DNA of 54,538 nt from an uncultured bacterium (lineage in GTDB: Bacteria; Babelota; Babeliae; Babelales; CAIQNR01). Below, in pieces: positions 22,075 through 54,538 of this stretch. Under the pieces are notes generated by a model. It did no database searches, was not told the origin of the DNA, and was given only the letters and a program-made list of their open reading frames with translations. Both the position numbers and the translations under genes were made by a program. Within the stretch, counting starts at the first letter, position 1; each line of letters begins with the position of its first letter. Location of the stretch: contig CAIQNR010000031.1 in the NCBI GenBank assembly GCA_903873255.1, forward strand, positions 1-54,538. The letters are read 5' to 3'.

Positions 22075-22085
22075 TGTTTCCTTTT

Positions 22086-24286: not shown

Positions 24287-24719
24287 TTTTTTTCTCCTGC
24301 ATCTCAAAACCATAATGATAAAGATCTGCTATTCGCTTCTTATCAGCTTCAAACCACTCAGCAGTCACCCGTTCTTGATACAATCCCTCAAAACGAGAAA
24401 GTGCCGAATCAGATGGAATTGGCAACTGTTCATACACTACTTTTGTCTCTGGATCTGTAAATGTTTTTTCTATTTTTTTTGATTCTTTTTGATTTACTGC
24501 CAGCTGAGATGAGCTATTTTCTAAATTAATTTTTGGCAGCAATAGCATATTTTTTAAATAATAAAGTCGTTGAATCTTAAATGTATTAAATATAACGCGC
24601 CGAAAAACCTTCTGCTGTAACACTGCAAATGACCCAATCGACACTGCAATAATGGTAAGCGCTATAACTGTTTCTATCAAGGAAAAACCATTACGAAAGT
24701 GGTTTTTGAAATGTATCAT
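24273..24719 (-). CDS. gspI: Minor pseudopilin GspI-like
   Basis: NG^FSLIETVIAL motif, size and position in the operon. Confidence 0.68.
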   Translation of the reverse strand: MIHFKNHFRNGFSLIETVIALTIIAVSIGSFAVLQQKVFRRVIFNTFKIQRLYYLKNMLLLPKINLENSSSQLAVNQKESKKIEKTFTDPETKVVYEQLPIPSDSALSRFEGLYQERVTAEWFEADKKRIADLYHYGFEMQEKKSEAR

Positions 24720-25287
24720 ACATCACACACTGAGCAGTAAAAGGATTAAGAACAATACTTATCTGTTTTGCATCTTTTTCTGATTGATTTTCCGGTTGAT
24801 CAACTATATTGATAATAACTTCTTGCGTGGTCCCATCAGGCATCATAAAAAACCATATGTTTTCTGTCTTACGCGAAAGACCGCCAGCTGCAATTTCATC
24901 AACCCCCTGAACATACAGTTGTTGAATCTCAAACGTTTCGGGCCACGTGTAAGAGTTAGAAGCAAAATGTAATGCTACCGGAGCAAAGATTGGTTTTTTT
25001 TCTGCATCCAATGTATCGGTCTGCTGACTTACTTCTATTTTTCTGTGTTCCAAATCAAAAGTTATTTTATGAAGAATATTATTTTCAAGCCCGCGCAGCC
25101 AAACTTCACTCATAACAGTATTGAGTTCAGAAGCAAAAGCTTTGCGCTCCTGAACCACTCGACGGCCAAGCAGATTGGGTACTGTAATGGCCATGAGCAA
25201 GCCCACAAGCGCAAGAGCTATAATAATTTCTATAAGACTAAAGCCTGGTTTATTCCCAGACTGTGAGACGTTCTTCTTCAGGGGCAT
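24691..25287 (-). CDS. gspH: Minor pseudopilin GspH-like
   Basis: PG^FSLIEIIIAL motif, FMMPDG; start placed at the ATG at 25287 (GGGAG RBS). Confidence 0.72.
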   Translation of the reverse strand: MPLKKNVSQSGNKPGFSLIEIIIALALVGLLMAITVPNLLGRRVVQERKAFASELNTVMSEVWLRGLENNILHKITFDLEHRKIEVSQQTDTLDAEKKPIFAPVALHFASNSYTWPETFEIQQLYVQGVDEIAAGGLSRKTENIWFFMMPDGTTQEVIINIVDQPENQSEKDAKQISIVLNPFTAQCVMYDTFQKPLS

Positions 25288-25669
25288 CTTCTCCCTTTGG
25301 TCCAAAAGAATATAATTCGTAAGGATGTTCGCCCTGTGCAGTTCTTTCGTATTGGAAATCATTGTTCCAATTATCAACTTTTATTTTATCCATGTAAGGG
25401 CCTGCCCACTTAGCACCAATACGTTCATCGCTTGGCTTTTCTGCAAGATCATTAAGTTCTGTTGGATAGCTACCTGTATCAGCATAGAAAATATCAATCG
25501 ATTGCTTAAAACCTTTTAAATCAGATTTTGTTGAACTAATTCTTTGTTTATCAAGAACCCCAGTCAAATTAACAACTGCTACACCCGCTACAATCGCCAT
25601 AATTGCAACTGCTATAATAATTTCTATTAAACTGAATCCAGAGCGGAGCGATCTTTGTAGTACCTTCAT
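25250..25669 (-). CDS. gspG: Type II secretion major pseudopilin GspG
   Basis: SG^FSLIEIII, FYADTGSYP, WAGPYM, DNWNNDFQY, LYSFGPKG (T2SSG domain). Confidence 0.9.
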   Translation of the reverse strand: MKVLQRSLRSGFSLIEIIIAVAIMAIVAGVAVVNLTGVLDKQRISSTKSDLKGFKQSIDIFYADTGSYPTELNDLAEKPSDERIGAKWAGPYMDKIKVDNWNNDFQYERTAQGEHPYELYSFGPKGEDAPEEERLTVWE

Positions 25670-25688
25670 AAAAACCTTTCATCATATA

Positions 25689-26903
25689 TTAGTGAACCAT
25701 ACTGCTCATCTTCATAATTGGCATGGTGATACCCATAATAACAAATCCAACTATCAATGCTGTTACTAATGTCATCATAGGATTTAGCAATGCTGCTAGT
25801 CCATCAGCAAATTCAGTTAATTCTTTTTCATACGTATCGCCTACACCAATAAGCATCATATCTAATTTTCCCGTTTCTTCACCAGTGCTAATTAAATAGG
25901 TTGCCATTGGAGGAAAAATGCCAGTTTGCTTAAGATACTGTGCTATTTTACCTTGTTTTATAATTTTTTCTCGTGCTTCTTTTAAAGATTCTTTCAAAAC
26001 TCTGTTGTCAACAATGTTACAAACAATGTCGAGCGCCTCTGATAAGTTAACGCCACCTTCTAGCAGCATGCCCAATGTTTTTGAAAATTGAACAATTGCA
26101 CCAATCTTTGTAAATGTACTTATAACTGGCATTTTTAATTTAAAGCGATCAAAATTAAGAGCGCCACTTTTAGTTGATTTCCAATACAAAAATGCCATCA
26201 CAACACTCACAATCGATCCAATCAGCACCACATAATGATTCAAAATAATACCTGACATCGCAACTAAAAGTACTGTTGCAAAAGGCAAATCGCCACCTTG
26301 TTGTTCAAAAATACCCATTAACTTAGGAACTATGGTTGTCATAAGACCAATAACAACCAAAAAGATAAGGCCCAATTGTATCAATGGCATACGAATAGCA
26401 TCTGTAATTTTTCCGCTTAATTCTTCGCTTCGTTCAAGATACTGAGTTAAACGATCAAGAATAACTTCTAATTTCCCGCTCGCTTCCCCTGCACGAATTA
26501 GTTGGATATATAAATTTTCAAAATCATGGGGATAACTGCTCATACCATCTGCCAAACCTTGTCCCTCTTTAAGGCCATCTTTAAGAGACACAATAATGCG
26601 ATGCATACGCCCTGTAAATTGCTCAATCAAAAGTTCAATAGCAGGAAGTAATGGGATACCTGATTTTAAAAGCACGGAAAGCTGTTTCGTGAATAATATT
26701 TTCTCTTTGAGTGTGATTGAACTAGAAAAAAGGCGTTCTAAGAAACTTTCCGACTGTATCGCTTTGTGTGCGGCAACAATAGAATATGCTAAAAGACCTT
26801 TACGCTGCAACAACTCGCGCGCTGAACCTTCAGAAGGTGCATCAAGAGAGCCTGTTACTTTTTTGCCGTCACGAGAAAATGCTTGGTATACAAACAAAGC
26901 CAT
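25689..26903 (-). CDS. gspF: Type II secretion inner-membrane platform protein GspF/PilC
   Basis: FTKQLSVLLKSGIPL, AGEASGKL, GEETGKLD duplicated T2SSF domains. Confidence 0.93.
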   Translation of the reverse strand: MALFVYQAFSRDGKKVTGSLDAPSEGSARELLQRKGLLAYSIVAAHKAIQSESFLERLFSSSITLKEKILFTKQLSVLLKSGIPLLPAIELLIEQFTGRMHRIIVSLKDGLKEGQGLADGMSSYPHDFENLYIQLIRAGEASGKLEVILDRLTQYLERSEELSGKITDAIRMPLIQLGLIFLVVIGLMTTIVPKLMGIFEQQGGDLPFATVLLVAMSGIILNHYVVLIGSIVSVVMAFLYWKSTKSGALNFDRFKLKMPVISTFTKIGAIVQFSKTLGMLLEGGVNLSEALDIVCNIVDNRVLKESLKEAREKIIKQGKIAQYLKQTGIFPPMATYLISTGEETGKLDMMLIGVGDTYEKELTEFADGLAALLNPMMTLVTALIVGFVIMGITMPIMKMSSMVH

Positions 26904-33138: not shown

Positions 33139-34377
33139 TTAAAAATGCATTGCTATATCAAACCCAATAGTAGGTGCATCAAGTGATCGCTTACCATTAA
33201 AAGGTATTTGAGCAAAGACAGAAAAAATAGGTGAAACAACACCACGCGTTCCCAGATTGTCATAACGAAACTGCATAAATATATCATGAGTTGTCCATTC
33301 CTTAAGGCCCATTGCCTTACTTGCGGTAATAGAAGAAAAATCATTATTTAAAATACAGAGTTTGTCATGGCCATGTTTTGTATGTTGATAAGCAATTCTA
33401 ACAACCATAGTATCGGTTAGTTGAGGTTCAAGATATAAATTAAAACGTTGCGTAATGCCATATTCTTTACGTGCATCAGCTTTTTGTAAAAACAAAAAAT
33501 CTGTTTGTAATAGATCGGTCATAATTCTTCTATGCTTAGTACAACTAAATATTTGTTCAAATCCTACATCGATACCAGCACGTAAAAACTTTTTAAATTT
33601 AAGATCAATTCCAGCACCAAAAGGCAATGCAAATGCACCATCATTACCAAATGCATATGAGAATGCTTGATCTTCATTTTTACACTTACCCGTTGGGAAA
33701 GAAACACCTAAGCGTGCATTAATTCCAACCTCTTTTAACCATTCTTTCTCTTGTAAAAAAACACGCATCCAATGAAGGTACGTCGTTAGATCACCAGGCC
33801 CAACAGCAGACCAATCTGTCAATCTAAGACCTCCAAATGTTTCTACATTATTAAAAAAGTTATCGGTCAGTAATTGGTGTGTAAGCATATCGTCATAAGT
33901 CAAATTCTGAGTTTGATCAACCCATGATGTATGATTAATTCGTGCTATATACACAGGCATACGAAACCGCAAAAACCACTCACTAAAAAAACGATAGCTG
34001 TATTCAAAAACTGAACTTTCAAAAGAAAGATCGCCATTAATAACAAAATGGCCTCTCATTCCGTTATCATCATCAATATTAATATTTTGGCCAATCTGGC
34101 TTTCTATAGATCCAACAGGAAAACCTTTAAGCATTGCTAAAGCATCCTGTGTTGTTGCTAAATATTGAAGTGGATTTACTTTATCACCATGGCAAGATCT
34201 GCCCTGCCCCGCAAAAGAAATACTTGGTATTACAAGAATTTCATGTTTTTTAAGCCGTTGTAAATGGGATCTAAAATTAATATCAGCAAGAGATCTTTCA
34301 AAAAAATTTATTGCGTCCACTGAAAAGCAACTTATTAATACACTCGATAAAATTATTTTTTTCATACAATTACTCAT
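33139..34377 (-). CDS. Putative outer-membrane beta-barrel protein
   Basis: Signal peptide (MKKIIL..VDA; start may be 34365), amphipathic strands, GPGDL and VSFPTG motifs, terminal IGFDIAMHF beta-signal. Confidence 0.7.
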   Translation of the reverse strand: MSNCMKKIILSSVLISCFSVDAINFFERSLADINFRSHLQRLKKHEILVIPSISFAGQGRSCHGDKVNPLQYLATTQDALAMLKGFPVGSIESQIGQNINIDDDNGMRGHFVINGDLSFESSVFEYSYRFFSEWFLRFRMPVYIARINHTSWVDQTQNLTYDDMLTHQLLTDNFFNNVETFGGLRLTDWSAVGPGDLTTYLHWMRVFLQEKEWLKEVGINARLGVSFPTGKCKNEDQAFSYAFGNDGAFALPFGAGIDLKFKKFLRAGIDVGFEQIFSCTKHRRIMTDLLQTDFLFLQKADARKEYGITQRFNLYLEPQLTDTMVVRIAYQHTKHGHDKLCILNNDFSSITASKAMGLKEWTTHDIFMQFRYDNLGTRGVVSPIFSVFAQIPFNGKRSLDAPTIGFDIAMHF

Positions 34378-34382
34378 TTTTA

Positions 34383-37310
34383 TTATTCAAGAATTTGAAG
34401 GCCATCATTTGTTACTACAATTAAAGACCCTAATGCGGAATTACGTACTATACCAGCAATACGTGTTGGGGTAGTTTGAAAAGGAATTGATTGAATATGA
34501 CGAGCAATCATACCAGTAAATGGCTCTGCAAATCCCAAATCACTTGGCAAAGCTTGTAACAATGCAAGATTATTTCCATACGCAGACCTTGTAATAAAGG
34601 GTACCGCACCATCGGTTATGTAATAATTTCTGTACTCACCAATATGCACATAGGGACTTATTATTCCAAGAAGCAGCCCATCTGGTATGCGTTGGACCGT
34701 AGTACTTGTAACACCACCTGTAGCATCTGCAATAGAAAATCTGTAAACAGAAGAAAGTTTATAACCAACTGACGATGCGAGCACATCAATCTGCCCGCCA
34801 ATTGTATCTTTTGCTATATCATATGAAAAACCAGTAGTAGAAAATGGCACAAGACGTGTTATAGCAGTTGGCCCTTCTGCCACTGAAATTTTATTCCATA
34901 AAGCACTTTCTGTACCTGTTGCTGTAGAAATAACACCTCCAGCCCCCGTTGTATACAGACCCATACTTGTTGCAAGAAGCGCAAGATCACCAGACACTAC
35001 ACAATCGGAAAAACTTCCAAATTGAGGCAATGCTAAAGAAGTTGGAGTTGCCAGTGGAACCGGAGTTACCGTACTGCCCTGTAACTGTGCTGTGGGGATG
35101 CGATCTAATTTTTTATTGGTAAGTACATACAGATTTTGGCCATCAGAAGTTAATTTTCTAATATTGGTATAAGAACCTAATTGAACCCATGAAAAATTAT
35201 TAATCCCATTAAATGATTTTTGCAAACTTGTCCAACCTGTTCCATCTTCTGCTCGTAGTACCGCAAGACCTCCAGTACCCCCTATAACAAGATAGGTGCC
35301 ATAAGAATAAGTTGTCTCTTTTACTAATGTTGCACTTGTAATGGCTCCAAGATTAGCAAGAGCTCCGCCAGACATTGTGATCATATAAGTATTTGAAGTT
35401 GGTGCGCTGCTAATGGTACCAGTAGTAAATATTTTATTGTCAGAACCGACAAAATTTCCTATACGTGGCGCAAAATAATTAGCCCCATTATCTTGTCCTG
35501 TTTCTACTAAAACAATTTTTTCATATCCCGTTGCAAGCATCAAAGATGTTCTAGAGCCTACCGTTGTGGTAAATCCAACAGAATTTTTTGGGAAATCAAA
35601 AAGACCATAAATACCTTCTGTAGCAGAAAATGTTTGTTGAAGTTGATCATTAAAACCAACAGTTTCATCAGTAGTTAAGCCTCCTAAAAGATTATCTGTA
35701 GCTCCAGCTCCCCAAGTAGAACTAATTACCGTATCAATAGTACTGCTTGAACTCCCCTGTAATGCAAACATTGTCCCTTGATTAGAATCAAAACTAATAC
35801 CAAAAAAACCAGTTGTACTATCTGTTGCATTTATTACTTGTTGCCATGGTGTCCACGCTTTAATTGCACCATTATTATCAAGCAATGCTTGAGAATAAAA
35901 AATTCCTGCAAAATCTGCCGTTCCTGTAACAGTAGAAACAAATACTGTATCTTTAAAAACTTGAATATCCTGAATGTTTCCAATGGTAACTCCACCACCA
36001 ACTTGAGCAGATGCATCAGTTTCTATGGGAAGATGAGATGGCACTGTAGGCGCAACTTGAAAAGCTCTTCTTACAATGCGAGAGGGAGTAACATTGGTAT
36101 CGTACAATGTTGTTAAATTTGTGCCTGAATTAATAACTTTACTTGCAAGAACCCCATGAGATGGATCAGTCCATACAGTTGAACGAAGATTTACTAACCT
36201 TTTATCAACAATCGGTAATGCATACACCGTTTTTTGATTGTTAGTATTTGATGCATTTCCTACAACAACAAGATATGACGGACCTGTCGTTGTATGCATA
36301 ACACGCACTTTACGTAAACAAGCAACTGTTCCTGCACCAACCCCACCAAGAATAGTATTAGTTCCTGTAAATAATGCTCCTTGAACAAATGGAGCTATAA
36401 TAACTTTTGGAATTATTATGTATTTTCCTATTTCATTAAGAACCTGAGTCCCTGCAAGATACACCATTGCAATACCAATTGCGCCATCAGTACCAGCTCC
36501 ATTGCCCGTGGATTGAAACACAATATAACCACGCTGTAAAACTTCATCCCAAACCATATCAAGAATAGTATGATCAAATGTTGGCGTAGTTCCAATTGTT
36601 AAAAAATTAAGAGTTGGATCCAAAGGCACCGCCTTAATACCTGTATCATTTAAAAGTGCTGCACACTGTATAATTCCTGTATACCCTGCTTGCAATAATG
36701 CAACACCTGATCCTATATCGCCAAAATTTCCACCTGTTTTTTTTACAATATTAAAAATATAATTATTTGAAGCTGCTATTTTAAGAACGCCAGCAGTAAC
36801 TGATCCATCAACATTTTGAATCCCTTGAGCATCTTTAATACCAGTAATAGAAGTTACTACAACTGGAGTTGAACCTAAACCACTACTAATCCAATAAAGA
36901 TTACTTGGGGTATCGTTACAAACTACTACAGGGGTTGTTCGATAAAGCCCCATCGCAGCTATTTTTTGTCCTATCAATGGATTAGCTTGATCGGCAACTC
37001 CATTGAGATTTACAAGCGTTGGCGCAAGAGGGGAGAAAGTTGAATTTAAAATAGAACATCCAGCTACTGAAAACTGGCGTATAGAATCAGGAGATATGTT
37101 ATCAGTTGAGCTGAACCTTGCTGTATAAAAAAGACCAGTATCTCCTGCTGATTGCGAAACATCAAAAGAAAAACTTTTCCCTGCTGGGGCATCAGCATCA
37201 CCAGTAATAACAACTCGTCCATTACAACTAAAAAACAAACTCACCGATAGGAGCAATTGCATACATTTTAAAGAAATCATACATACCCTCAATAACATTT
37301 TTATTCTCAA
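34383..37310 (-). CDS. Large secreted Thr/Gly-rich beta-rich (propeller-like) surface protein
   Basis: N-terminal hydrophobic leader; blade-like repeats LVIGGTGGL, LYVLTNKKL, LLATSMGLY, LIVVTNDGL. Start uncertain. Confidence 0.75.
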   Translation of the reverse strand: MRIKMLLRVCMISLKCMQLLLSVSLFFSCNGRVVITGDADAPAGKSFSFDVSQSAGDTGLFYTARFSSTDNISPDSIRQFSVAGCSILNSTFSPLAPTLVNLNGVADQANPLIGQKIAAMGLYRTTPVVVCNDTPSNLYWISSGLGSTPVVVTSITGIKDAQGIQNVDGSVTAGVLKIAASNNYIFNIVKKTGGNFGDIGSGVALLQAGYTGIIQCAALLNDTGIKAVPLDPTLNFLTIGTTPTFDHTILDMVWDEVLQRGYIVFQSTGNGAGTDGAIGIAMVYLAGTQVLNEIGKYIIIPKVIIAPFVQGALFTGTNTILGGVGAGTVACLRKVRVMHTTTGPSYLVVVGNASNTNNQKTVYALPIVDKRLVNLRSTVWTDPSHGVLASKVINSGTNLTTLYDTNVTPSRIVRRAFQVAPTVPSHLPIETDASAQVGGGVTIGNIQDIQVFKDTVFVSTVTGTADFAGIFYSQALLDNNGAIKAWTPWQQVINATDSTTGFFGISFDSNQGTMFALQGSSSSTIDTVISSTWGAGATDNLLGGLTTDETVGFNDQLQQTFSATEGIYGLFDFPKNSVGFTTTVGSRTSLMLATGYEKIVLVETGQDNGANYFAPRIGNFVGSDNKIFTTGTISSAPTSNTYMITMSGGALANLGAITSATLVKETTYSYGTYLVIGGTGGLAVLRAEDGTGWTSLQKSFNGINNFSWVQLGSYTNIRKLTSDGQNLYVLTNKKLDRIPTAQLQGSTVTPVPLATPTSLALPQFGSFSDCVVSGDLALLATSMGLYTTGAGGVISTATGTESALWNKISVAEGPTAITRLVPFSTTGFSYDIAKDTIGGQIDVLASSVGYKLSSVYRFSIADATGGVTSTTVQRIPDGLLLGIISPYVHIGEYRNYYITDGAVPFITRSAYGNNLALLQALPSDLGFAEPFTGMIARHIQSIPFQTTPTRIAGIVRNSALGSLIVVTNDGLQILE

Positions 37311-39714: not shown

Positions 39715-40518
39715 TTAGCGCCATGATGGGCGCTTACGCTTAGGAGCATCTTCTTTAGTTCGCTCTGTTTGAATTGGGCCATTAGTAAGACCACGAATAA
39801 ATTGATGAACGTAAGGATTATCAGTTTCCCAAATAGTTTTTGCATCACCAAAAAATTGAATCTTGCGTTCATTAAGTAATGCAACATGGTCAACATACTT
39901 AAAAATTTCCACATCATGAGAAATTACAATTGCAGTAATGCCTAATTTTTTTTGAGTATTAAACATCAATTCATGAATAATACGTGTTGTGATTGGGTCA
40001 AGACCTGTTGTTGGCTCATCGTATAAAATAATTTTTGGATTTACGATCAAAGTACGAGCAAGACCTACTCGCTTTTTCATACCACCAGAAATTTCTGATG
40101 GGTATTTGTCCATAGTTTGCTCTGGAGAAAGATTAACCAATGTTAATTTTTCTTTAACAATAGGAAGAACTTCTTCTTTAGGAATTCCTTTTTCCAGCAA
40201 AGGAAGACCGACATTTTCAAAAACAGTCAGAGAGTCGAGAAGTGCAGCAAATTGGAAAACATATCCAACTTTTTTAAAGACATGCTTTAGTTCTGCTTCA
40301 TCCAATTTTGTGATATCAACACCATCAATTAAAATGCTACCAGAAGTTGGTTTTATAAGCCCAATAATTTGTTTAAGAAGAACAGACTTACCTTCTCCTG
40401 ACTTTCCTATAATACACGTTGTTTGCCCTTCAGGAATACTGAGAGTTACACCATCTGTAATCCATTCTGAATCATCAGAAAAACGCTTACGTACATTCAC
40501 CAACTCTATCACAGGCAA
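39715..40518 (-). CDS. mlaF: ABC ATPase MlaF/Mkl
   Basis: GKSGEGKS, FQFAALLDSLTVFENV, ISGGMKKRVGLAR, YDEPTTGLDP. Confidence 0.92.
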   Translation of the reverse strand: MPVIELVNVRKRFSDDSEWITDGVTLSIPEGQTTCIIGKSGEGKSVLLKQIIGLIKPTSGSILIDGVDITKLDEAELKHVFKKVGYVFQFAALLDSLTVFENVGLPLLEKGIPKEEVLPIVKEKLTLVNLSPEQTMDKYPSEISGGMKKRVGLARTLIVNPKIILYDEPTTGLDPITTRIIHELMFNTQKKLGITAIVISHDVEIFKYVDHVALLNERKIQFFGDAKTIWETDNPYVHQFIRGLTNGPIQTERTKEDAPKRKRPSWR

Positions 40519-40528
40519 ACTCCTTGCA

Positions 40529-41335
40529 TTACTTAAATAACAATGTTGTTAAGAAGTAGTCGGCTATCAAAATAGAAATAGAACTTATTACCACACTTTG
40601 GGTTGTTGCAAGACCAACACCTTTGGCACCACCAGATGTATAAAATCCTTTATAACAACCAACAGAAGAAAAAATAAAACCAAAAGCTGCTGCTTTTAGA
40701 AGGCCTCCCGTAATATCGGCAAGCTCAACAAATGTTTTAATCCCAGAAATATACTGTTCACCATTGATAAAAAGTACATTAACGCAAATCAAATAACCAC
40801 CGACAATACCGCAGATCATGCTAAATACTGCCAAAAATGGAATGATAATTGTGGCACCCAAGATACGTGGCACCATAAGATATTGATTAACATCAATACA
40901 AAGCGTCTGAAGAGCTTCAAGCTGTTCGGTAATGCTCATTGTCCCAAGCTCAGCAGTCATTGCCGAACCTGCACGACCAGTAACCATTAAGCCAGTAAGT
41001 ACTGGGCCAAGCTCTCGAATTAAACTAAGTGCAACAACTGGACCAATAAAATCTTCGGCACCAAATCGTTTGAATCCTATATAACTTTGCCATGCTAAAA
41101 CAGCTCCAGTAGAAAAACCGGTCAACAAAATAATACTGAGCGATTCAACGCCTATGGTACACATTTGATCAAATAATTGATGAACGCGTAATTTAGAAGT
41201 AAAGGCAGTTTTGATAACGCCCCACATAAATAGAAAGAAACTACCAATCGTATCAAGGGTAGAAACTACATATGCACCAACAGAAAAAACTAGACCTTGT
41301 ACCATTCTAGCCATAGAAAGAACCGATGAAATCAT
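40529..41335 (-). CDS. mlaE: ABC permease MlaE
   Basis: IRELGPVLTGLMVTGRAGSAMTAELGTM, GGAKGVG.ATT.SVV. Confidence 0.94.
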   Translation of the reverse strand: MISSVLSMARMVQGLVFSVGAYVVSTLDTIGSFFLFMWGVIKTAFTSKLRVHQLFDQMCTIGVESLSIILLTGFSTGAVLAWQSYIGFKRFGAEDFIGPVVALSLIRELGPVLTGLMVTGRAGSAMTAELGTMSITEQLEALQTLCIDVNQYLMVPRILGATIIIPFLAVFSMICGIVGGYLICVNVLFINGEQYISGIKTFVELADITGGLLKAAAFGFIFSSVGCYKGFYTSGGAKGVGLATTQSVVISSISILIADYFLTTLLFK

Positions 41336-45461: not shown

Positions 45462-46745
45462 TCACCTCGTAAATTTTTTACTTCGCAATACTCTGTGATA
45501 GGTAATGGCAAAATGATGTGCATAATCACGCAATGCAATCAATAGTTTACCACTCTCCAGCTTAAGATCTAGATGAATCCCTTCTGGATATGCATCAGCA
45601 AATAATAACTCTTCTTTTTTTGCCAAACTCACACAAGGCGTATGGGGAACTAATGACAAAACTGCATTTCTTTGTCCTTTACCACCATCGATAAGAATAA
45701 GGTCGGGCAAGTTTTTTGAATCTTTATAACGACGACCAACAATTTCATGGAGCGCCGCATAATCATTTTGCTCGACGAGTGTTTTAATCTTAAATCGACG
45801 AAATGCTTTTTTATCTGGTCTTCCGCTAGTAAAACGGACACATGAACCAACAATTGAATTGCTCTGAAAATGTGAAATATCAAAACAATCTATAGTTAAA
45901 GGAATAGATGAAAGTTTAAGCATTTTTTTAATTTCTAACGCTGTTTTTTCATAATCTTTTGCAAGAGTAACAGTTTCAGAAGCAGTCACAGAAACAACTT
46001 TTTCTTGGTACTTAGAAAAATCAAATTTTGTTTTAATAATTTTAAAAATTCCATCAATATTTTGTTGATAGTCACGTAAATTTTTTGCTTTTTCAAACTC
46101 TAATTTTTGTGAATATTCTTTAATTTTCGTACTTATTTTTTTTATAAATGCCCCATGGTTATCCTCTAAAGCATCAACTGCTAGTTGCAGTCTAAAAAGG
46201 TAACCCTCTTTATCAAAATCATTTTTACAAATCCCAGCGCATTTACCCAAATGATAATCAAGACAACCATTTTCTATTTTTTTATTACAGAGATACAGCT
46301 TAAACGTACTAAGTAAATAATCATATGCTGCTCGCGCTTGTTGCTTATGAATAAAAGGACCAAAGTATGTTCCCATTTTTGGCTTTGCCCGTACCAATTC
46401 AAGAATAGGCAAATCATCCTGACTACCAACAATCAGAAAAATAAAAGGCTGCCCAGATTTTAAAAGAACATTATATTTTGGCTGATAGCGCTGCACAAGT
46501 TCTGCCTCGAGAAGCAAGGCATCATGTTCTGTTTTTGTCAGTATGTGATCGATTGAAGTACTGTCATCAATAAGGCCTTGAACTTTCCAATCTGTTTTAT
46601 GTTTTGCAAAATAAGAAAGCACCCTTTTTTGTAATATTTTTGCCTTACCAACATAGATAATATCGCCTTGTTCATTTTTAAAAAGATAGATTCCTGGTAA
46701 TTTTGGTAGCTCCCGAGCAGACTCTTTAAGTTGTTCGTAATTCAT
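45462..46745 (-). CDS. uvrC: Excinuclease UvrC, short form without C-terminal HhH domain
   Basis: GIY...YVGKA GIY-YIG domain, Cys cluster, UVR helix, CFDISH, PDLILIDGGKGQ, RDYAHHFAITYH. Confidence 0.92.
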   Translation of the reverse strand: MNYEQLKESARELPKLPGIYLFKNEQGDIIYVGKAKILQKRVLSYFAKHKTDWKVQGLIDDSTSIDHILTKTEHDALLLEAELVQRYQPKYNVLLKSGQPFIFLIVGSQDDLPILELVRAKPKMGTYFGPFIHKQQARAAYDYLLSTFKLYLCNKKIENGCLDYHLGKCAGICKNDFDKEGYLFRLQLAVDALEDNHGAFIKKISTKIKEYSQKLEFEKAKNLRDYQQNIDGIFKIIKTKFDFSKYQEKVVSVTASETVTLAKDYEKTALEIKKMLKLSSIPLTIDCFDISHFQSNSIVGSCVRFTSGRPDKKAFRRFKIKTLVEQNDYAALHEIVGRRYKDSKNLPDLILIDGGKGQRNAVLSLVPHTPCVSLAKKEELLFADAYPEGIHLDLKLESGKLLIALRDYAHHFAITYHRVLRSKKFTR

Positions 46746-46751
46746 GGTCTT

Positions 46752-49700
46752 TTAGAATCCCCCTGTATCGAGCATATTGTTAAAGTTTTGAGTATTTGAG
46801 CCCTTAGTTGTACTTGGGGTGCCAAGCAACGATCCAAGTGTTGGAAGTGGCGGCTTAGAAACCTGTGGAGGTGTAACAACAGGAGGTGTTGGCGGAACAA
46901 CTGTAACAATAGGTTGTGCTTTTACATAGGCAATACTTTGCTGTTGTATTGTTTGATACAGAGCTACAGAAGTAAGACCACTGTAATTGGAAAGCATTGT
47001 GGTATATAAAGGCGCGTTTGCAACCGGAGCAATAGTAACTTTTGTAAGGTCCTGCCCAACAAGCGAAGTTACCAGTTTTCCAGCAATGGTATACATAAAT
47101 ACTTGGCCTGTCACAAGGCTTACAAGCCCATTAATTGTACTATCTTTTGGATCTAATTTTTGACCATAAGCATGCGATGGTGTTATGAGTCCGGCACTAT
47201 TGATAGTTGCAGCAATAAAGTAATCTTTACCTGTAAGATTTTTAGTTATTGAGCTACCACTATACACAAATCCACCATTTTGGATTGCTTGCACTTCACC
47301 TGTTAAGGTTATATTTGCAAACAATATGCTTGTTGCAAGAGAAGCATAGTACTGCGTGTTTGCGGCGGTAATTGCTTGAATTAAACTTACAGGAAGCCCC
47401 AATGAACTTTGGCATAGAGCAAGTACACCATTACATGGCTGAATAAGTTGTTTAGTTTGATCATAAGCATTACCAGTTACCAAACTAACAATTATTTGAG
47501 GGTTTTCACTTGGATCAACACCAAGGCCATTTGCAACGCCAACTGATGCACCTTTGGTAATAGAAGATGCAAAAACCACATAATCGATGTCATTATTTGC
47601 AAGACCTGTTTGGTTAGTTGTATACACAAAAACACCTTGGCTTATTAAATCTTTGCTTACTGGTGCTAGTGTAAATGAACCAAAGGTAATTGGATTTCCC
47701 AGTTGAGCGCTTTTTGCCATCCAACTTTTTTCTTGATCAATTTCTTTTGGAAGTATGCCCTGTTTTGCAAATTGAGCATCAACAGCAGCATTTGATTGTT
47801 TGCGAGCAGCAGAGATGACGGGGGTAAAACTTGGAGTAATAACTTGGTATTCAACTGCAGCACCTGACGCGATAACACCAATCGATCCTGCATATTTTGG
47901 AGCGCCCTGTTGCTGTTGTGATTGAGAAACGTAAGGAATCCAACTATTTTGTGATGAATCATAACCCTGTTTACCAACTCCAGTATCGGCTACTAAGGAA
48001 ATGTTTGCAGGCGTAACTTCTTGGTTTGTTGGGGCACTTAGCTGAGAACTTCCTGGCATTGCAACCATCGGTGCAGGATAAATATACTGAGGATCCATAC
48101 TAACAGGAAAACTACCCTGCCAATTTCCAGGCTCAACATCTGTTTCTACCCAACATTTTACTACTGCTGTATTACTATTTATTTGCATTTTCATTCTATA
48201 CCAGACACCTGTTTGATAATTAATTGGTGCAATATTTTTATTAATCCAGTCAGCTCCTTGATGTTCATATAACCCAACTGAAGGCGTTATTGTAAGAGCA
48301 TCTCTAAATATAACAAGCGCTTTACCTTTATTATTGAAATTCAAAACATGCATATTTACATCATTAATGCTTTTCCAGAGCTGCTGTTCAAGTATATCTC
48401 TATTTGTAGCTGTTGAATTTTCTAGAACAGTAAGATTATTATAAAGCCCTGTCAGAGCATTTGCGTCGATATATTGATTACTCATAAAGAGACCTACATA
48501 AAAGGCGCCTTGTGTTTCATAAAGCGTACGCCATCTTATTTCTGCGGAAAGCGCCGTTCCATTTGGAACCATAGAAAGATCTTTTTGGTTAATCCAAAAT
48601 TGAGTTGGGGATTGATTAATTTTTACAGAGCTTCCTTGTGTATCAGCTACTACTTGTGTTGGCATACACCCAACTTCTTGTGCAAAACTATTTCTTTGAG
48701 AGTTGTATACCGTTAATCCCTGCGATGGGTTCAATGCAACGCGATTTGTTTGAATACCATACACAGCTCCAGGATCTCCATACATAAGACCTGTTTTACT
48801 ATCTGGCGTAAGTAATTGATTATAAAAACTGCCAAGCCCATAAGCAGAAGTTTGTATAGATGTATTAAGGGAATTATTAAGATAGTTTTGGTAGTAGAGC
48901 AAGCTTCTTTCTTGATTTTTAAGTGTATCATCAAGCTGACTATTGATATCTTGAACTAAAAGACTTTGAGTAAAGCTTGATGTCATAATATTGTCAGTAA
49001 CATATGCCGAAAATTTATGGAGATAATCTGTTTGATTAGCCTTATTGGTAATAGCTTCTTCATCTTTCTGATTTTCACCCACGGTACTCATCGCCATCAT
49101 ACCAGCACTAAGAGCTGCAATAGAAGCTGCAATAGCAATCCCAAGCGGTCCCGCGGCAGCTCCTCCTGTAAAAACTGTTGCTACAGCACCAGCAATCGTT
49201 AAAACTGCTATCGAAATTGCACTAACAATCACTCGGCGATGCTGATTTAACGAAGTCTGAATATTGTTGAATGCAGCAGATGCATCCCCACCATTAACCG
49301 TTGCATTAAGAGCAGCAATACCGCCCGCAATATTAATACTAAGATCAAGAATTGCACCGGCCAAATAGGCAGCCCCTTGCATAATTCCTTGCAGCCCTAC
49401 CTCAACCGCTTTAATCATAAATTTAATTGGTCTAAGTAATGCAACAACCATATTTTTTAAGAAAGTAGAACCCATAGAGTCCATTCCTGCAAAAGGGGTT
49501 CCTCCAGTAGCTGCAATAAAGGGAGCGGCTGCAAGTTCAACTACTGCTTGTGCTATAAATGCAAGCGATCCAGCAGCAAGTTGTACTAATGTTGCAAGAC
49601 CCGATGCAGCCATTCCAACAACATCAACACAGACATCTATAGTTGCATCATTAATACTATTTATAAATCCAGTGATATCGTCTCCTAATGCCCCTCCACC

Positions 49701-51608
49701 CAAAATAACACCTAAAGATTGACCAATAACGCTTCCAACTAAATTTGTTGTTGCCTTAGCTGTAGCACCATAAGCTGCTTGTATGTTTACAAAATTTTCA
49801 GCAAAATCCCCTATATCTGTTTGACTCTGAATCAGAGTTTTTCCACCCTTTACTAACGATTGACCATAGCTAATACCTTCAACAGCACATGCTATACCCG
49901 TATCATAATACCAGAGACTCATGTTCCAATCTTTAAGATACTCCCCTGCTATCTTTACACCTGTATATAAAGCGCTGCCCAATTGCTTCATTGCACCAAC
50001 AAATGAATGTCCAAAATCTGTAAATGCGCTGGTAAATGAATGACCTTGAGGTGCGGCAGTCCCATTATTTGCTGTACTACTAGTAGGTGGAGTTGCAGCA
50101 CCGGCCTTTAAAAAATTAATATCATCAAGATACAAATAGTCTGATGGTTGATAAGAAATAATAATAGGAAATGTATCAAAAAATGATTGGTCTATTGTTG
50201 CTAGTTGCGCCATTGTACTTTCTAAGTTTGCCGTATTAAACAGATAATCAAGAGTATTATTTAGCAATTTGATACCAGAAAAACCAACAAGCGTCATATA
50301 TAAAGGAGTAGGCATATATCCTGAATGGCCCTGCGTAAAGAGAGCATTAAACATACTTGTATAAGTTAAGCCTTCAGATGTTGAACCCTTTGCTGGTTGA
50401 TACTGTAATAATAAATTTCCAAAACTTGTCAGCGAAACATTTCCAGTTTTTTGGTCAACAAGCAACATCCCCTTAAGATTTTGATTTGGTACTAAAGTAA
50501 AAGTACCATCATTATTTTTAACGGTATAAAAAAAAGATGCAAAACCAGGAGCAATAACTCCCGATGCATCTACTATTTTAATAGAAGTTGATAATGGATA
50601 GGTAGCTTTCCCAAAGGTAGCCTCAGTAAATGATTTTTGTGAAAAATAATCAGCTGAACCTTTAAAAATCTGGATTGCATCATACAAAGCAGATGTATCT
50701 TTAATCTGACTCCATTCAACAGATTGAGCAATAGCACGAGCACGAACTATTTCTGTAATAACTAAAAAAACGCGTACAATTTCTGAATTAATACGCAAAT
50801 CCTGAAAGCATTGAGTGTAATAAGCAACTTCAAACTGAGGTATATAGGTGAAAAGCTGCTTTTCTTCATCATGAACATTTGAAAGTAATAATTTTTCATA
50901 ATCAAAAGAAGATGCAATAAGTGATTTAAGATACTTTTGCCATAAAGGAGATTGTACGCAAAGCTTTATTATTGATGAATCTAATCCATTTTTTTTCGAC
51001 TGATAATCATTCTTAGCTTGGGTTAACTGAGATTGATACTTTGCAAGAAGCGGATCTTTTTTTGATGTAGCAATGGCAATTTGCTGCTGCAAGTTATTAA
51101 TTGTTTGTTGTTCAGATTGCAAAACAGTATCAACAACAAGCCCTTGCATTAATGCATATAATCTTCTAATTGCATCCATAACAACAGGTGGCAAATGGAG
51201 CGTATCGTTATAAAAATGAGTAACAGCTTTATCAAGAGAAGGAAGCAGAGCACAAGCAGGATTTGCTGGATCAGGAAAAACTGAAAAAAATTGTTGAAGG
51301 GTAGTTTCTATAACAGAATCAATATTTTGATTTGATCCCACTGGAGTTTGACTAGATGAAGCCGTTCCAGGCAAAGGCACTGGTACATTAGAAGAACTAG
51401 TAGGTGATGCAGACAGAGTAATCACATTACTAGGTGAAGATGTTACTAAAGCAGATTGTATCGGGGTACTAACCGAAAGAGCTTTATTAGATTGCAGAGC
51501 AACAGTTGCAATTGATTGTTTCTTTTTTTTGCTAGTAATAGGAGTTGCAGCATAAAGATATGAAGTCATGCAAAAAAAAATTGTTATATATTTTATAATT
51601 TTATTCAT
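46752..51608 (-). CDS. Giant secreted multi-domain protein (1618 aa) with pore/translocon-like hydrophobic core
   Basis: Signal peptide ending LYA, S/T/P linker, helical domain, about 320 aa Gly/Ala hydrophobic region, coiled coil, beta-sandwich, two VSLVTG repeats, Pro-rich tail. Confidence 0.85.
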   Translation of the reverse strand: MNKIIKYITIFFCMTSYLYAATPITSKKKKQSIATVALQSNKALSVSTPIQSALVTSSPSNVITLSASPTSSSNVPVPLPGTASSSQTPVGSNQNIDSVIETTLQQFFSVFPDPANPACALLPSLDKAVTHFYNDTLHLPPVVMDAIRRLYALMQGLVVDTVLQSEQQTINNLQQQIAIATSKKDPLLAKYQSQLTQAKNDYQSKKNGLDSSIIKLCVQSPLWQKYLKSLIASSFDYEKLLLSNVHDEEKQLFTYIPQFEVAYYTQCFQDLRINSEIVRVFLVITEIVRARAIAQSVEWSQIKDTSALYDAIQIFKGSADYFSQKSFTEATFGKATYPLSTSIKIVDASGVIAPGFASFFYTVKNNDGTFTLVPNQNLKGMLLVDQKTGNVSLTSFGNLLLQYQPAKGSTSEGLTYTSMFNALFTQGHSGYMPTPLYMTLVGFSGIKLLNNTLDYLFNTANLESTMAQLATIDQSFFDTFPIIISYQPSDYLYLDDINFLKAGAATPPTSSTANNGTAAPQGHSFTSAFTDFGHSFVGAMKQLGSALYTGVKIAGEYLKDWNMSLWYYDTGIACAVEGISYGQSLVKGGKTLIQSQTDIGDFAENFVNIQAAYGATAKATTNLVGSVIGQSLGVILGGGALGDDITGFINSINDATIDVCVDVVGMAASGLATLVQLAAGSLAFIAQAVVELAAAPFIAATGGTPFAGMDSMGSTFLKNMVVALLRPIKFMIKAVEVGLQGIMQGAAYLAGAILDLSINIAGGIAALNATVNGGDASAAFNNIQTSLNQHRRVIVSAISIAVLTIAGAVATVFTGGAAAGPLGIAIAASIAALSAGMMAMSTVGENQKDEEAITNKANQTDYLHKFSAYVTDNIMTSSFTQSLLVQDINSQLDDTLKNQERSLLYYQNYLNNSLNTSIQTSAYGLGSFYNQLLTPDSKTGLMYGDPGAVYGIQTNRVALNPSQGLTVYNSQRNSFAQEVGCMPTQVVADTQGSSVKINQSPTQFWINQKDLSMVPNGTALSAEIRWRTLYETQGAFYVGLFMSNQYIDANALTGLYNNLTVLENSTATNRDILEQQLWKSINDVNMHVLNFNNKGKALVIFRDALTITPSVGLYEHQGADWINKNIAPINYQTGVWYRMKMQINSNTAVVKCWVETDVEPGNWQGSFPVSMDPQYIYPAPMVAMPGSSQLSAPTNQEVTPANISLVADTGVGKQGYDSSQNSWIPYVSQSQQQQGAPKYAGSIGVIASGAAVEYQVITPSFTPVISAARKQSNAAVDAQFAKQGILPKEIDQEKSWMAKSAQLGNPITFGSFTLAPVSKDLISQGVFVYTTNQTGLANNDIDYVVFASSITKGASVGVANGLGVDPSENPQIIVSLVTGNAYDQTKQLIQPCNGVLALCQSSLGLPVSLIQAITAANTQYYASLATSILFANITLTGEVQAIQNGGFVYSGSSITKNLTGKDYFIAATINSAGLITPSHAYGQKLDPKDSTINGLVSLVTGQVFMYTIAGKLVTSLVGQDLTKVTIAPVANAPLYTTMLSNYSGLTSVALYQTIQQQSIAYVKAQPIVTVVPPTPPVVTPPQVSKPPLPTLGSLLGTPSTTKGSNTQNFNNMLDTGGF

Positions 51609-51610
51609 AG

Positions 51611-54538
51611 TTATGTTCCCGATGAAAGTTGTTTGGTAAATCGTGCAATATCACTTGCTGTATAAACCAATTCTTGTGGTTTATTTAAGCTAAAACGAGC
51701 AGAACATCCTGATGAAACAAATCCTATAGAATGACCATGCCATACGATTGGATTTCTACCTGCAAGCACTGCTGGGCCAAATACGTTTGTCAAAGAACCA
51801 TCCGTATTTTTTATGCTTAATATAACAAAAATAGTCTCTGGCTGAGTAAAAATTGTTATGACATAGGTTGTTCCAAGCGCAAGAGGAGTCTGAGTACTTG
51901 TACCAGCTGTAGGATACAAAGGATTACTTATTAAATTTTTATTAGCAGTACTCCAAAGTGCTTTTTCAGATACAGTTCCCATAATTTGATGTAAAGGAGT
52001 AATAGGAGAAAGCGCAGACTGTGTTGCAATGGTTGAAGTCATAAACAAACTTTCTGCCGCGCAAAAAGTAATAGGTGATGACTTGCTTGAACTATAAAGT
52101 CCACAAAAACGATACTGATTCATTTGATCTGTAACCCCAGAAATCCAACGGGCCTGATTAAATATAATTCCAGCTACCCATGGGGATTGGCCAGAACTTA
52201 TCTGTACTTCTGCTTGAATTTGATAGGTCCGAACACCAGTAACATCATTGATAGTAGGAGGTATATATTCTGTAAAAATAGAATTTAAACCCGCTTGTGA
52301 TGAATCACCTTGCGGTAGTTGGGGTGTAGCAGAAGGAATCATAGAATATTGATAGAATGAATTATCGGTAGCACTGTACTCCCAATTTCCACATCTACCA
52401 ACATTATACCAAGTATGATCGACAGGATAAGACGGAATTGTTTGTGAAATTTTTGGAAGTGATGATGGAGGAATAATAGGAAGACCTGATGGCGCAATCG
52501 CGGCAATGGTGAGCTTTCCATTTAAAAACTTCCATAAATAGGTATCTGCTAAACTTTTTGTACTAAGCAAGGGAGGAACAGACCAAGGAGTACTGTAATA
52601 AACGGGGCTAGGAGGAAAATAAATAATAGGATTTTTCTTATTAGGAGAAGGCTGAACTATTGCAGAAGGCGTATACATAGGTGCATATAAAAAATATTGG
52701 TCCCATACCATAGGATTGGATATATAATTAGTTGCCACACTTGCAGAAATTAATGTTTGTAAAAAATAGGTTTGCTGATCAGTAAACAAGCTCGTAATAT
52801 CTGCCTGCTTAGCTGCTAATATATTTAATCTCCACGATGCTGCTTGTTCACTTAATTGAATTTGCGCCTGTGATGCTGCTTGAATTTGATTAATCTTTAC
52901 CTGAAAATCTACTTGTACCTTAGTTTCTTTTGCCTTAATATCGGCAAATGTTTGTGCATCTGCAGCATCAATCCAAGAAATGGCAAGCGATGACCCTTGC
53001 ATAATACCCATTTGAAGCATCATATCAGCAGCTGTTTTTGTACGATCCGCCCATACAGCTGCAGTATCCCATGATTTCGCTTTGTTCAGTTCTTTTTCTA
53101 TTGATATCTCTTTACCTTTTGACGTTAATGTATCAAGCACCCCTTCTTTTGATTTTTTTAATGCCTTTATTTGGTTATTAATCTCAATCGTCCGCGGATC
53201 TTTTTTGGGTAATTTTTTTGCCAGCGCATTCATTTCTTTTACTTGGCTTTTGATAGTACTATCTAATTTTTCTTTTGAATGGTTGATATTAGTCAAAAGT
53301 CTTTTTTTAGTAAGCCATCCATCATCGCCCTTTCTAATCTTTCTTGTCTGAGCTGCAAGCTCTTTATACATCCCTTGATATTTAGCACCATCATTTTTAA
53401 ATTTTTCACCTAGATCTGCTACATACTCATCAAAAGTCATAGCTGTATCTTCACTCAGAGGTTCTATCATAGGCTCTAGTCCTTCAAGATCTGAAACAAC
53501 ACCTTCTTTTGCCGCATCACTAAGAACATCGCTAACATCAGCAGATCTAGAAATACCTGTTAACTCATCTACTGCATTCATAGCAGCTGTATCATTTTTC
53601 AGAGCAGAAATAGTATCTTCTACTTCACTTAAGTTAGAAAAAGATGAATCAAATTTTGATGCTACCCCTGATACTGACCTTATTCCAACTTGTTCAGCAG
53701 CTATTTCAGCCAATTCTGCCGAAACTGCTCCAGGCAAAGGTTTGAGAGCTCCAGTAGAATCAGCAGCAAGCTCAACCGATGAACCATCTGGCAAGGTTTC
53801 TTTTAAAATATTACCAGAAGCGTTTTCAATAATCGAACCACCGCTCTTAACAGTACTTTTGAGAACATTTCCAGCACCATCAGCAAGAGCTTCGCCTACT
53901 ACTTCAGCCAAATCACCCACAATAGAAGCCTGTATTTTAGGAATGGAAGTGAACTTTTTTATCTGCTGTGTTAATGCAAACCGCATTGGTTTATAAGCCC
54001 AAAAGTTAACAACTTCAGGAAGTTTTATATGTTTTTGAAATACAAAATAATGCATTGCTTGTGAGTACGTTTGCAAGCATTCGCACCGTTCAAGAGCTGT
54101 GTAAATAAGTAGTTGATTGGTAAGATTCTGAATGACCGTTATTTTTTTATTGCCATACCATTGCATACTCGTAGTAATAGAATCCCACACTGCATTAATC
54201 CAACCCTTGATACACTGGAAATATGGAAGATGATGAGTTTCTATCCGTGCAAAATCTTTAAAATGCGCTCTCTGTAACTCTACAATTTCGATGGCAAGGC
54301 TAATTGGACCCTGATCTTCTTCATAAGCATTCAATAAAACTTTTTTCTTGCTATCAATTATTTTCTGAAGATCATCTGCAGCTTTACAAGCGGCTTGAAT
54401 TTTTTGGTACATTGTTGCTTCGTCAATAGTAATAAGTACATGACGAAGTATCTCTCTTTTCTTTTTAGAAAGTCCTGAATTTTCAAGAAAATAGGTATGT
54501 TTTTCTGTAATAAAACCATCTAAAGCAATAAAAGAAAC
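51611..54538 (-). CDS. Giant protein (>975 aa, 5' partial); C-terminal half paralogous to the downstream gene
   Basis: Frame is open from 54412 to the window edge with no stop; acidic then basic helical regions, Q/A coiled coil, beta-sandwich ending HSIGFVSSGC; 2-bp gap to the next gene. Confidence 0.85.
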   Translation of the reverse strand, partial: VSFIALDGFITEKHTYFLENSGLSKKKREILRHVLITIDEATMYQKIQAACKAADDLQKIIDSKKKVLLNAYEEDQGPISLAIEIVELQRAHFKDFARIETHHLPYFQCIKGWINAVWDSITTSMQWYGNKKITVIQNLTNQLLIYTALERCECLQTYSQAMHYFVFQKHIKLPEVVNFWAYKPMRFALTQQIKKFTSIPKIQASIVGDLAEVVGEALADGAGNVLKSTVKSGGSIIENASGNILKETLPDGSSVELAADSTGALKPLPGAVSAELAEIAAEQVGIRSVSGVASKFDSSFSNLSEVEDTISALKNDTAAMNAVDELTGISRSADVSDVLSDAAKEGVVSDLEGLEPMIEPLSEDTAMTFDEYVADLGEKFKNDGAKYQGMYKELAAQTRKIRKGDDGWLTKKRLLTNINHSKEKLDSTIKSQVKEMNALAKKLPKKDPRTIEINNQIKALKKSKEGVLDTLTSKGKEISIEKELNKAKSWDTAAVWADRTKTAADMMLQMGIMQGSSLAISWIDAADAQTFADIKAKETKVQVDFQVKINQIQAASQAQIQLSEQAASWRLNILAAKQADITSLFTDQQTYFLQTLISASVATNYISNPMVWDQYFLYAPMYTPSAIVQPSPNKKNPIIYFPPSPVYYSTPWSVPPLLSTKSLADTYLWKFLNGKLTIAAIAPSGLPIIPPSSLPKISQTIPSYPVDHTWYNVGRCGNWEYSATDNSFYQYSMIPSATPQLPQGDSSQAGLNSIFTEYIPPTINDVTGVRTYQIQAEVQISSGQSPWVAGIIFNQARWISGVTDQMNQYRFCGLYSSSKSSPITFCAAESLFMTSTIATQSALSPITPLHQIMGTVSEKALWSTANKNLISNPLYPTAGTSTQTPLALGTTYVITIFTQPETIFVILSIKNTDGSLTNVFGPAVLAGRNPIVWHGHSIGFVSSGCSARFSLNKPQELVYTASDIARFTKQLSSGT

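Follow-up and report, generated by a model that had tools for sequence, protein, structure and literature searches.

A three-gene cassette encoding large proteins with predicted lectin-like domains in some families of the Babeliales

Gene order, insertion site and distribution of the cassette

We analysed a stretch of 54,538 nucleotides from an uncultured bacterium of the Babelota (GenBank assembly GCA_903873255.1, contig CAIQNR010000031.1), here called the window, which is the whole of contig C31 in a genome of 898 kb, 45 contigs and 96.9% completeness. The right end of the window is filled by two large genes on the minus strand, B and C, the second and third members of a three-gene cassette, A-B-C. 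An earlier sequence-only reading of this DNA had described two huge open reading frames (ORFs) 2 bp apart, and this is what lies there: the frames occupy 51611..54538 (B) and 46752..51608 (C), and their junction reads TAA-CT-ATG, with a spacer of 2 bp. B had been taken for a giant cut by the edge of the window, which proved mistaken in that only 13 of its 988 residues are missing. These are supplied by a 988-aa protein from another assembly, 100% identical to B, from which full-length B is seen to begin MKKIIAYILLISMVSFIAL (residues beyond the contig end). The B orthologues of the same genus measure 974 and 984 aa, and those across the relatives, directly upstream of C, range from 398 to 1054 aa. 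C orthologues are single-copy and 1258-1747 aa long in the relatives. Searches for paralogues of B or C elsewhere in this genome returned self matches only. Among the sequencing runs listed, the sequence was present in one DNA run, a lake water metagenome that is possibly its source, and in no RNA run.

Of 40 relatives searched, B was found in 20, and C in exactly these 20 as well. Eighteen of the 20 have the two genes side by side, on one contig and strand, and in the remaining two they stand on separate contigs, at contig ends. Their stop and start codons overlap or nearly abut in the relatives, as expected of the co-translated pair that the sequence-only reading had proposed, and the conserved adjacency in relatives on which it had made its proposal depend was recovered both here and phylum-wide, where B lies directly upstream of C in 32 genomes out of 33. 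The relatives are Candidatus Babelota or Babeliales, in agreement with the assignment to the Dependentiae made from the sequence.

The suggestion that the operon has more members beyond the window edge was also confirmed. A third large gene, A, stands directly upstream of B in all 17 loci for which the full region is available; its product measures 1169-1318 aa within the family of the window and is shorter elsewhere (460-596 aa), and each of the 16 other upstream ORFs is matched by the A protein of the same-genus genome G001 at E<=7e-17. In the genome under study, A residues 6-297 are encoded right at the end of contig C42; the remainder falls into an assembly gap. Because the start of A and a divergent M23 peptidase gene end contig C42 (G000:C42:13327-14532, minus strand, and C42:14654-15511, plus strand), C42 and C31 are neighbours across a gap of ~2.7 kb that holds the missing part of A and the 13 codons of B. 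No Pfam family, PDB relative or profile similarity to B or C was found for A (best hhalign E of 0.58 against B and 0.37 against C). Signal-like N-termini, called by a crude rule of our own and not by a dedicated predictor, were counted in 15/17 A, 14/18 B and 15/18 C proteins, and one of the four failing B N-termini is that of the truncated window copy. The Sec signal peptide that had been read on the complete frame, C, thus corresponds to a signal-peptide-like N-terminus by this heuristic. In one fragmented relative, G010 (120 contigs, 3% contamination; G010:C12:1-10500), A and C are each split into two ORFs, which could be pseudogenes or result from assembly or frameshift errors.

The cassette was surveyed across the phylum by profile searches of 151 evenly sampled Babelota genomes. 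Matches to the C profile occurred in 34 of them; the B-domain profile matched 33, all C-bearing, with exactly one match per genome. Counted by family, C was present in f1 (11/12), f6 (12/12), f11 (6/7), f2 (1/3), f3 (2/20) and f15 (1/1), and was not found in f19 (0/55), f12 (0/12), f5 (0/7) and f7 (0/6). The cassette was not found in 117 of the 151 sampled genomes. It is limited to some families of the Babeliales (Dependentiae/Babelota), which are intracellular bacteria of protists. Searched against 1.84 billion representative proteins, the C profile gave 248 matches at E<=1e-3 and 124 at E<=1e-30.

Where present, the cassette is flanked by an M23 peptidase gene on the A side and by a uvrC-like gene on the C side. 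The M23 peptidase gene (~400 aa) is divergent from A in 7/7 cassette genomes checked, this one included, and downstream of C the window has the uvrC-like gene, which Pfam also confirmed in three other genomes. Five near-complete cassette-free genomes were inspected at the same place: in three of them the M23 peptidase and uvrC-like genes are divergent neighbours, 163, 841 and 1013 bp apart, and in the other two they lie 39 and 82 kb apart. Since the flanking genes adjoin in three of these five genomes, the cassette can be described as an accessory block of 11-12 kb that was gained, or cleanly lost, at a fixed site. The content of the gap between the two flanking genes varies: G033 and G056 have one small signal-peptide ORF there (170 and 208 aa), and the 39-kb gap of G031 (within G031:C1:424000-463800) holds many signal-peptide ORFs, two of which (623 and 693 aa) have identical N-termini. 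The cassette diverges faster than its neighbours: the uvrC-like protein reaches 70% and ClpB 86% identity to their counterparts in the same-genus G001, but B only 43% and C 51%.

Domain anatomy of B and C

The features of the two proteins are collected in Table 1. AlphaFold models were obtained for C 96-1270 (17 sequences, mean predicted local distance difference test score, pLDDT, 61.2) and for B (20-sequence alignment, mean pLDDT 62.9).

Table 1. Cassette genes, predicted protein regions and downstream border gene in the window (residues in aa; coordinates are window positions)
Feature	Coordinates	Strand	Remarks
Gene C	46752..51608	-	complete, 1618 aa; third gene of the A-B-C cassette (ORF list and translation)
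C 1-21, signal-peptide-like N-terminus	51546..51608	-	MNKIIKYITIFFCMTSYLYA/A; called by our own heuristic
C 22-95, Ser/Thr/Pro-rich linker	51324..51545	-	S 24%, T 12%, P 11%
C 96-500, N-terminal domain: predicted helical bundle and small beta part	50109..51323	-	AlphaFold pLDDT ~75-90, model residues 1-405
C 505-790, Gly/Ala-rich helical region, amphipathic to hydrophobic helices	49239..50096	-	A 16%, G 13%
C 791-843, strongly hydrophobic 52-residue helical hairpin	49080..49238	-	Kyte-Doolittle maxima 2.33 and 1.95
C 844-930, long N/Q/S-rich "stalk" helix	48819..49079	-	AlphaFold helices, model residues 727-776 and 780-838; aligns with B stalk
C 931-1265, concanavalin-A-like beta-sandwich	47814..48818	-	AlphaFold
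C 1306-1565, two tandem ~135-aa modules	46914..47693	-	motifs DY.VFA and SLVTG; copies 1306-1423 and 1427-1565
C 1566-1618, Pro/Thr-rich tail	46755..46913	-	P 19%, T 16% over 1561-1618
Gene B	51611..54538	-	second cassette gene; 975 of 988 codons in window, first 13 beyond contig end
B 20-195, N-terminal helical bundle	53954..54481	-	AlphaFold pLDDT ~77-92
B 200-370, acidic low-complexity linker	53429..53941	-	pLDDT 27-41, no secondary structure
B 371-601, long helices including moderately hydrophobic 502-520 and Q-rich 525-601	52736..53428	-	DSSP, low to moderate pLDDT
B 706-975, concanavalin-A-like beta-sandwich	51614..52423	-	best conserved part of B
uvrC-like gene	45462..46745	-	427 aa; Pfam GIY-YIG, UVR, UvrC_RNaseH_dom; downstream border, outside cassette

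In C, the linker that follows the signal-like N-terminus is unconserved in orthologues, and matches to relatives begin at about residue 96. The Gly/Ala-rich region was drawn as helices by AlphaFold at pLDDT 30-45 and contains segments with Kyte-Doolittle scores >=1.6 at 623-641, 657-701 and 749-767. The protein is most hydrophobic in the hairpin beyond it, where the 19-residue maximum of 2.33 falls at 793-811; the hairpin is composed of 28% A, 13% I, 11% V and 11% G, shows many small-xxx-small patterns in its sequence and is directly preceded by a conserved HRR (family consensus HRRLI...TGGA...GMM). This hydrophobicity is itself conserved: segments scoring >=1.6 were present in the central hydrophobic region of 17 of the 18 C-family members scored, and the 16 full-length orthologues reach 1.86-2.77 there. 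The sole exception is a split ORF of G010, in which a segment >=1.6 occurs only at its end, at 753-771. The model of the whole hydrophobic region has a pLDDT of 30-45. Downstream, the beta-sandwich at about 930-1265 was modelled at a pLDDT of ~80. The two tandem modules near the C-terminus align with each other (hhalign probability 98.9%, P 1.3e-17); no PDB sequence relatives were found for these tail repeats.

B carries no such anchor. Its helices were assigned by DSSP to 369-402, 408-441, 448-473, 480-518 and 525-601; helix 502-520 aligns with the end of the C hairpin, and its Kyte-Doolittle score is only 0.84, which is why we do not regard it as membrane-grade in this genome. By the same scale neither A nor B has a membrane-grade segment. 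The acidic linker at 200-370, which has zero consensus residues in the family alignment, is probably disordered and variable between orthologues, as judged from the model. The C-terminal beta-sandwich of B was modelled at a pLDDT of 75-95.

The sequence-only reading had called B and C tandem paralogous giants, and pairwise and hidden Markov model (HMM) comparisons gave a divided answer. BLASTP of B against C returned a best E of 0.51, and when HMMs of each module were searched against 1605 genome ORFs, the C HMM placed B at rank 612 of 1097, and the 1179 rows of the B HMM did not include C. Comparison of profile with profile, in contrast, connected the two proteins. With full-length family alignments of 18 sequences each, hhalign gave three collinear local matches exactly at the motifs proposed earlier (B 885-911/C 1130-1156, P 4.2e-5; B 933-963/C 1238-1268; B 523-610/C 845-928). 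Restricted to B 560-975 and C 860-1275, the comparison reached a global P of 2.8e-7 (probability 88.8%) and a local P of 2.2e-4, compared to 0.05-0.17 for reversed-profile controls, and one alignment covered all five motif pairs in collinear order (C residues 906, 968, 1022/1036, 1134 and 1241; B residues 588, 721, 776/787, 889 and 936; all ten strings present). The N-terminal domains, B 15-205 and C 96-345, gave a P of 0.1, the same as their reversed controls (0.08-0.13).

The models agree with this partial kinship: both proteins have the same predicted domain order, a long helix followed by a concanavalin-A (ConA)-like sandwich, and each sandwich has the curved, two-sheet, antiparallel jelly roll by which the ConA-like fold is defined (~200-250 residues in that superfamily). 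B and C therefore appear to share a module of stalk and sandwich, most simply through an ancient duplication. Judged by their sequences, they are not paralogous over their whole lengths, the N-terminal halves being unrelated. Of the ordered shared module described earlier, the beta-rich domain and the order of the motif pairs hold for both proteins, but the hydrophobic helix is membrane-grade in C only; as to the Q-rich coiled coil, Q makes up 17% of B 530-600 and 9% of C 844-930, the latter with 13% N, and AlphaFold drew long helices at low confidence.

Foldseek searches with the two sandwiches, which we call heads, returned legume lectins and GH43 C-terminal domains for each, and the top neighbours coincided. 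The solved structures closest to the heads are the L-lectin domain at the C-terminus of thrombospondin (2rhp, 1ux6), ECA2234 (3mep) and CBM66 of Bacillus subtilis (4b1m), these three being the shared top neighbours, together with the legume lectins and GH43 domains. The heads are thus predicted members of the ConA-like superfamily at fold level only. They differ from its known members in that identity is only 8-13%, that there is no Pfam or PDB sequence match, and that in the cassette the heads follow long helices in very large proteins. The glycan binding attributed to the pair by the sequence-only reading therefore stands as far as the fold is concerned, a ConA-like sandwich in both proteins, and no further.

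The fold matches also include ConA-like phage receptor-binding proteins, and the Gly/Ala-rich region of C resembles the helical regions of phage tape-measure proteins. A domesticated module derived from a phage tail, in which B would stem from a receptor-binding protein and C from a tape-measure-like protein with a receptor-binding head fused to it, could account for both likenesses; we nevertheless consider such an origin very improbable. The matches of C 505-790 to helical-repeat proteins are weak and composition-like (E 1e-12 to 1e-7, unnamed long proteins). Eight of them were scanned: six have Baculo_PEP_C-type repeats, and one of these six is a tape-measure protein with TMP_3 and Peptidase_M23 domains. 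The matches cover only compositionally biased helices, tape-measure rows appeared in BFVD at a probability of 0.23, and no Pfam tape-measure model matches C at E<=1, tape-measure proteins being one of the non-pore families that the sequence-only reading had named as a possible refutation. All three cassette proteins have signal-like N-termini, which tail proteins lack. The neighbourhood is not that of a phage either: the chromosomal site is constant across families, no other phage gene flanks the cassette, and the 17 loci contained no tail, baseplate or capsid relatives.

Candidate roles: host contact, envelope structure or membrane insertion

We tentatively favour the view that the cassette encodes a Sec-exported, lineage-specific, accessory complex of the envelope or of host contact, in which C is held in a membrane and paired with B, and the lectin-like heads are displayed. 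In the arrangement that we infer, A, B and C would all be exported by Sec, C would be retained in the membrane by its hydrophobic hairpin, and B would pair with C along the stalk helices. The pair would show two lectin-like heads able to bind a glycan, most likely on the surface of the host cell or of its vacuole, and the cassette would act as an accessory attachment or host-contact device and not as a core part of the envelope. Pairing of the two proteins, proposed earlier as a hetero-oligomer, was addressed by co-folding C 845-1270 with B 520-975. The median score was 0.59 (runs 0.65, 0.59 and 0.48) compared to 0.00 for the best of three controls, the runs agreed in at least 40% of contacts and the partner had a pLDDT of at least 63, a result classed as weak support for the hetero-oligomer. 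In the corresponding benchmark the mark was reached by 58/80 solved complexes and by 2/110 mismatched pairs; at scores <=0.60 these were 7/80 of the solved complexes and both mismatches.

Several points weigh against this reading. Support of the weak class in co-folding is, without a strong prior, more often wrong than right. Sequence-to-profile searches do not link B and C. We infer lectin activity from the fold, and a ConA-like fold alone would not prove sugar binding. The hydrophobic region and the stalks were modelled at pLDDT 30-60, which makes the geometry of the hairpin and of the coiled coil tentative. If the signal is cleaved and the hairpin is simple, the HRR before the hairpin would face the periplasm, contrary to the positive-inside rule. 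Moreover, a passage of PMC6561590 places signal peptides on 44% of the coding sequences of Chromulinavorax; signal peptides being very common in the phylum, those of the cassette say little about any special destination. Finally, the genome has two Omp85 genes, and in a diderm cell an inner-membrane hairpin anchor would keep the heads in the periplasm, off the surface.

This last point leads to a second reading, in which the cassette forms a lineage-specific envelope structure with no direct role towards the host: C would be anchored in the inner membrane and span the periplasm, B and A would be its periplasmic partners, and the stalk, the ConA-like domain, the repeats and the Pro-rich tail of C would reach the peptidoglycan or the outer membrane. 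With a Sec signal and so hydrophobic a hairpin, C would tend to be retained in the inner membrane, an outer membrane is implied by the two Omp85 genes, and the Pro-rich tail and long helices may recall spanning proteins of the TolA/TonB type. The surroundings are also of a housekeeping kind, with an M23 peptidase gene and uvrC-like, clpB, secG and mlaEF genes. However, the M23 peptidase is a neighbour by position, whether the cassette is there or not. No cassette was found in those 117 of the 151 sampled genomes, the flanking genes adjoin where it is missing, which marks it as dispensable for the basic envelope, and it diverges much faster than its neighbours. We consider a purely structural role unlikely on this basis.

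The hairpin of C invites a third reading, close to the one proposed from the sequence, namely that A, B and C are secreted, membrane-inserting alpha-helical subunits of a pore-forming or translocon-like system. The Gly/Ala-rich amphipathic helices would shield the C hairpin until the lectin heads dock, and the hairpin would then insert and open a pore or path for entry, egress or vacuole remodelling. Known tripartite alpha-pore-formers are of the Hbl/Nhe/AhlABC type, and hairpin inserters include the colicin pore domain and the diphtheria T domain. By analogy, the succession of amphipathic helices and a very hydrophobic hairpin in C may recall the layout of colicin-type proteins, ApoL and the diphtheria T domain, and three co-transcribed, exported proteins would resemble the tripartite alpha-pore-formers. 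The richness of the C hairpin in small-xxx-small patterns, the accessory and fast-evolving nature of the cassette and the weak co-folding support for B with C go in the same direction. Yet no pore-former family was matched in Pfam, among PDB sequences or in the fold-search lists, which are dominated by the ConA-like domain, and the hydrophobic region on which insertion would depend was modelled at pLDDT 30-45. One would expect a protein with a Sec signal and a hairpin at a Kyte-Doolittle score of 2.3 to be arrested in the bacterial inner membrane, and the other two proteins, A and B, lack membrane-grade segments. Furthermore, neither a secretin (PF00263) nor the FHIPEP export gate of type III secretion systems and flagella (SctV/FlhA, PF00771) was found in the 96.9%-complete genome, so that no route across the outer membrane is evident; a divergent secretin or an assembly gap is possible, and a control search for FHIPEP found the family in 4/14 reference genomes. 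By this marker the genome shows no sign of the type III secretion system with which translocator pairs of that type work. The pore-forming proposal was thus not upheld, and we judge it quite improbable, both as to the nature of the subunits and as to the shielding and insertion steps.

In its boldest form, this proposal would make A-B-C a tripartite Sec-exported machine, whose two paralogous lectin heads, borne on a heteromeric helical stalk, dock onto a protist glycan, after which the Gly/Ala-rich helices and hydrophobic hairpin of C insert into the host membrane; to this we give little credence. It would be a new alpha-helical membrane-inserting family, unrelated to known pore-formers, carried by a cassette gained or lost at one site and serving entry, egress or vacuole remodelling.

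The likeness to Hbl/Nhe/AhlABC and to hairpin toxins lies in three co-transcribed exported proteins and in the amphipathic helices and hydrophobic hairpin found in one of them. In contrast to Hbl/Nhe/AhlABC, the cassette proteins gave no sequence or fold match in the searches run, their size is three to four times greater, and the one shared module, confined to B and C, has a lectin-like sandwich instead of a ClyA-type bundle. ClyA-type chains were not among the fold-search matches, the lists being dominated by the ConA-like domain and the helical parts having low pLDDT. Compared to phage tape-measure proteins, C differs by a match limited to biased helices, a signal-like N-terminus, a non-phage neighbourhood and a fixed chromosomal site. 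The stalked L-type lectins ERGIC-53 and VIP36 likewise combine a lectin head with a helical stalk and an anchor in the membrane, a likeness of layout only: C runs in the opposite order (anchor, stalk, head), its anchor is a hairpin within a protein of 1618 aa, it is accompanied by a second subunit and by a third gene, and the proteins are bacterial. On the whole we rate the cassette as akin to the exported lectin-domain complexes of host-associated bacteria.

Database searches, neighbouring genes and meaning for the Babeliales

The sequence-only reading had recognised no family in the two frames, and the searches bear this out. Pfam gave no family for B or C at E<=1, and none for the cassette trios of G001 and G029, for 16 A proteins or for four C homologues among the longest (2236-2716 aa). 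Against PDB sequences, profiles made from A, full B, the B domain, C 96-1270 and the C tail returned nothing below E 0.0025, the few rows obtained being biased or designed proteins. The ESM Atlas yielded neither a usable match nor a stored model for C or for the A protein of G001. A word-based homologue search with B 600-975 retrieved only six close relatives, under the sole name "hypothetical protein". The full-text literature searches made listed no paper on the cassette; supplements, which lay outside those searches, could hold gene lists naming these proteins. Within the collections searched, the whole proteins A, B and C and the cassette itself are without a matching Pfam model, a solved relative at sequence level or a named counterpart.

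Downstream of C, the window continues with housekeeping genes: uvrC-like, clpB, secG, mlaE and mlaF. The uvrC-like gene is short, with 427 aa here and 410-430 aa in the relatives checked; its product has GIY-YIG, UVR and RNase-H-like endonuclease domains, and the C-terminal helix-hairpin-helix is absent from the Pfam results. The Mla-type lipid transport genes are split, a 555-aa MlaD-domain protein (20428-22095, minus strand) being encoded far from mlaE (40529-41335, minus strand) and mlaF (39715-40518, minus strand). Two adjacent ORFs of 975 aa (34383-37310) and 412 aa (33139-34377), together spanning 33139-37310 on the minus strand, have no Pfam family at E<=1e-5. Genes of the type II secretion system or type IV pilus kind also lie on the minus strand of the window (24691-26903), namely GspF (25689-26903), GspG (25250-25669) and a pseudopilin with an N-methylation motif (24691-25377). 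Export of the pair by a type II system had been suggested from such genes; the GspF and GspG-like genes are indeed in the window, but the missing secretin match leaves that suggestion unsupported.

The Babeliales (Dependentiae) are widespread and live as obligate intracellular bacteria in protists; to our knowledge, their means of attaching to, entering or remodelling host cells are almost wholly unknown. In this context, the work describes a conserved, unannotated three-gene cassette (~124 C representatives in 1.84 billion proteins) with clear presence or absence at a fixed site. Should it prove to be an envelope structure only, it would be an ordinary lineage-specific cluster of hypothetical proteins. 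Two lectin-like heads together with a conserved membrane-grade hairpin would otherwise make it a concrete candidate, open to testing, for recognising the host or engaging a membrane, and the cassette provides a marker separating lineages that may differ in host range or in mode of entry.

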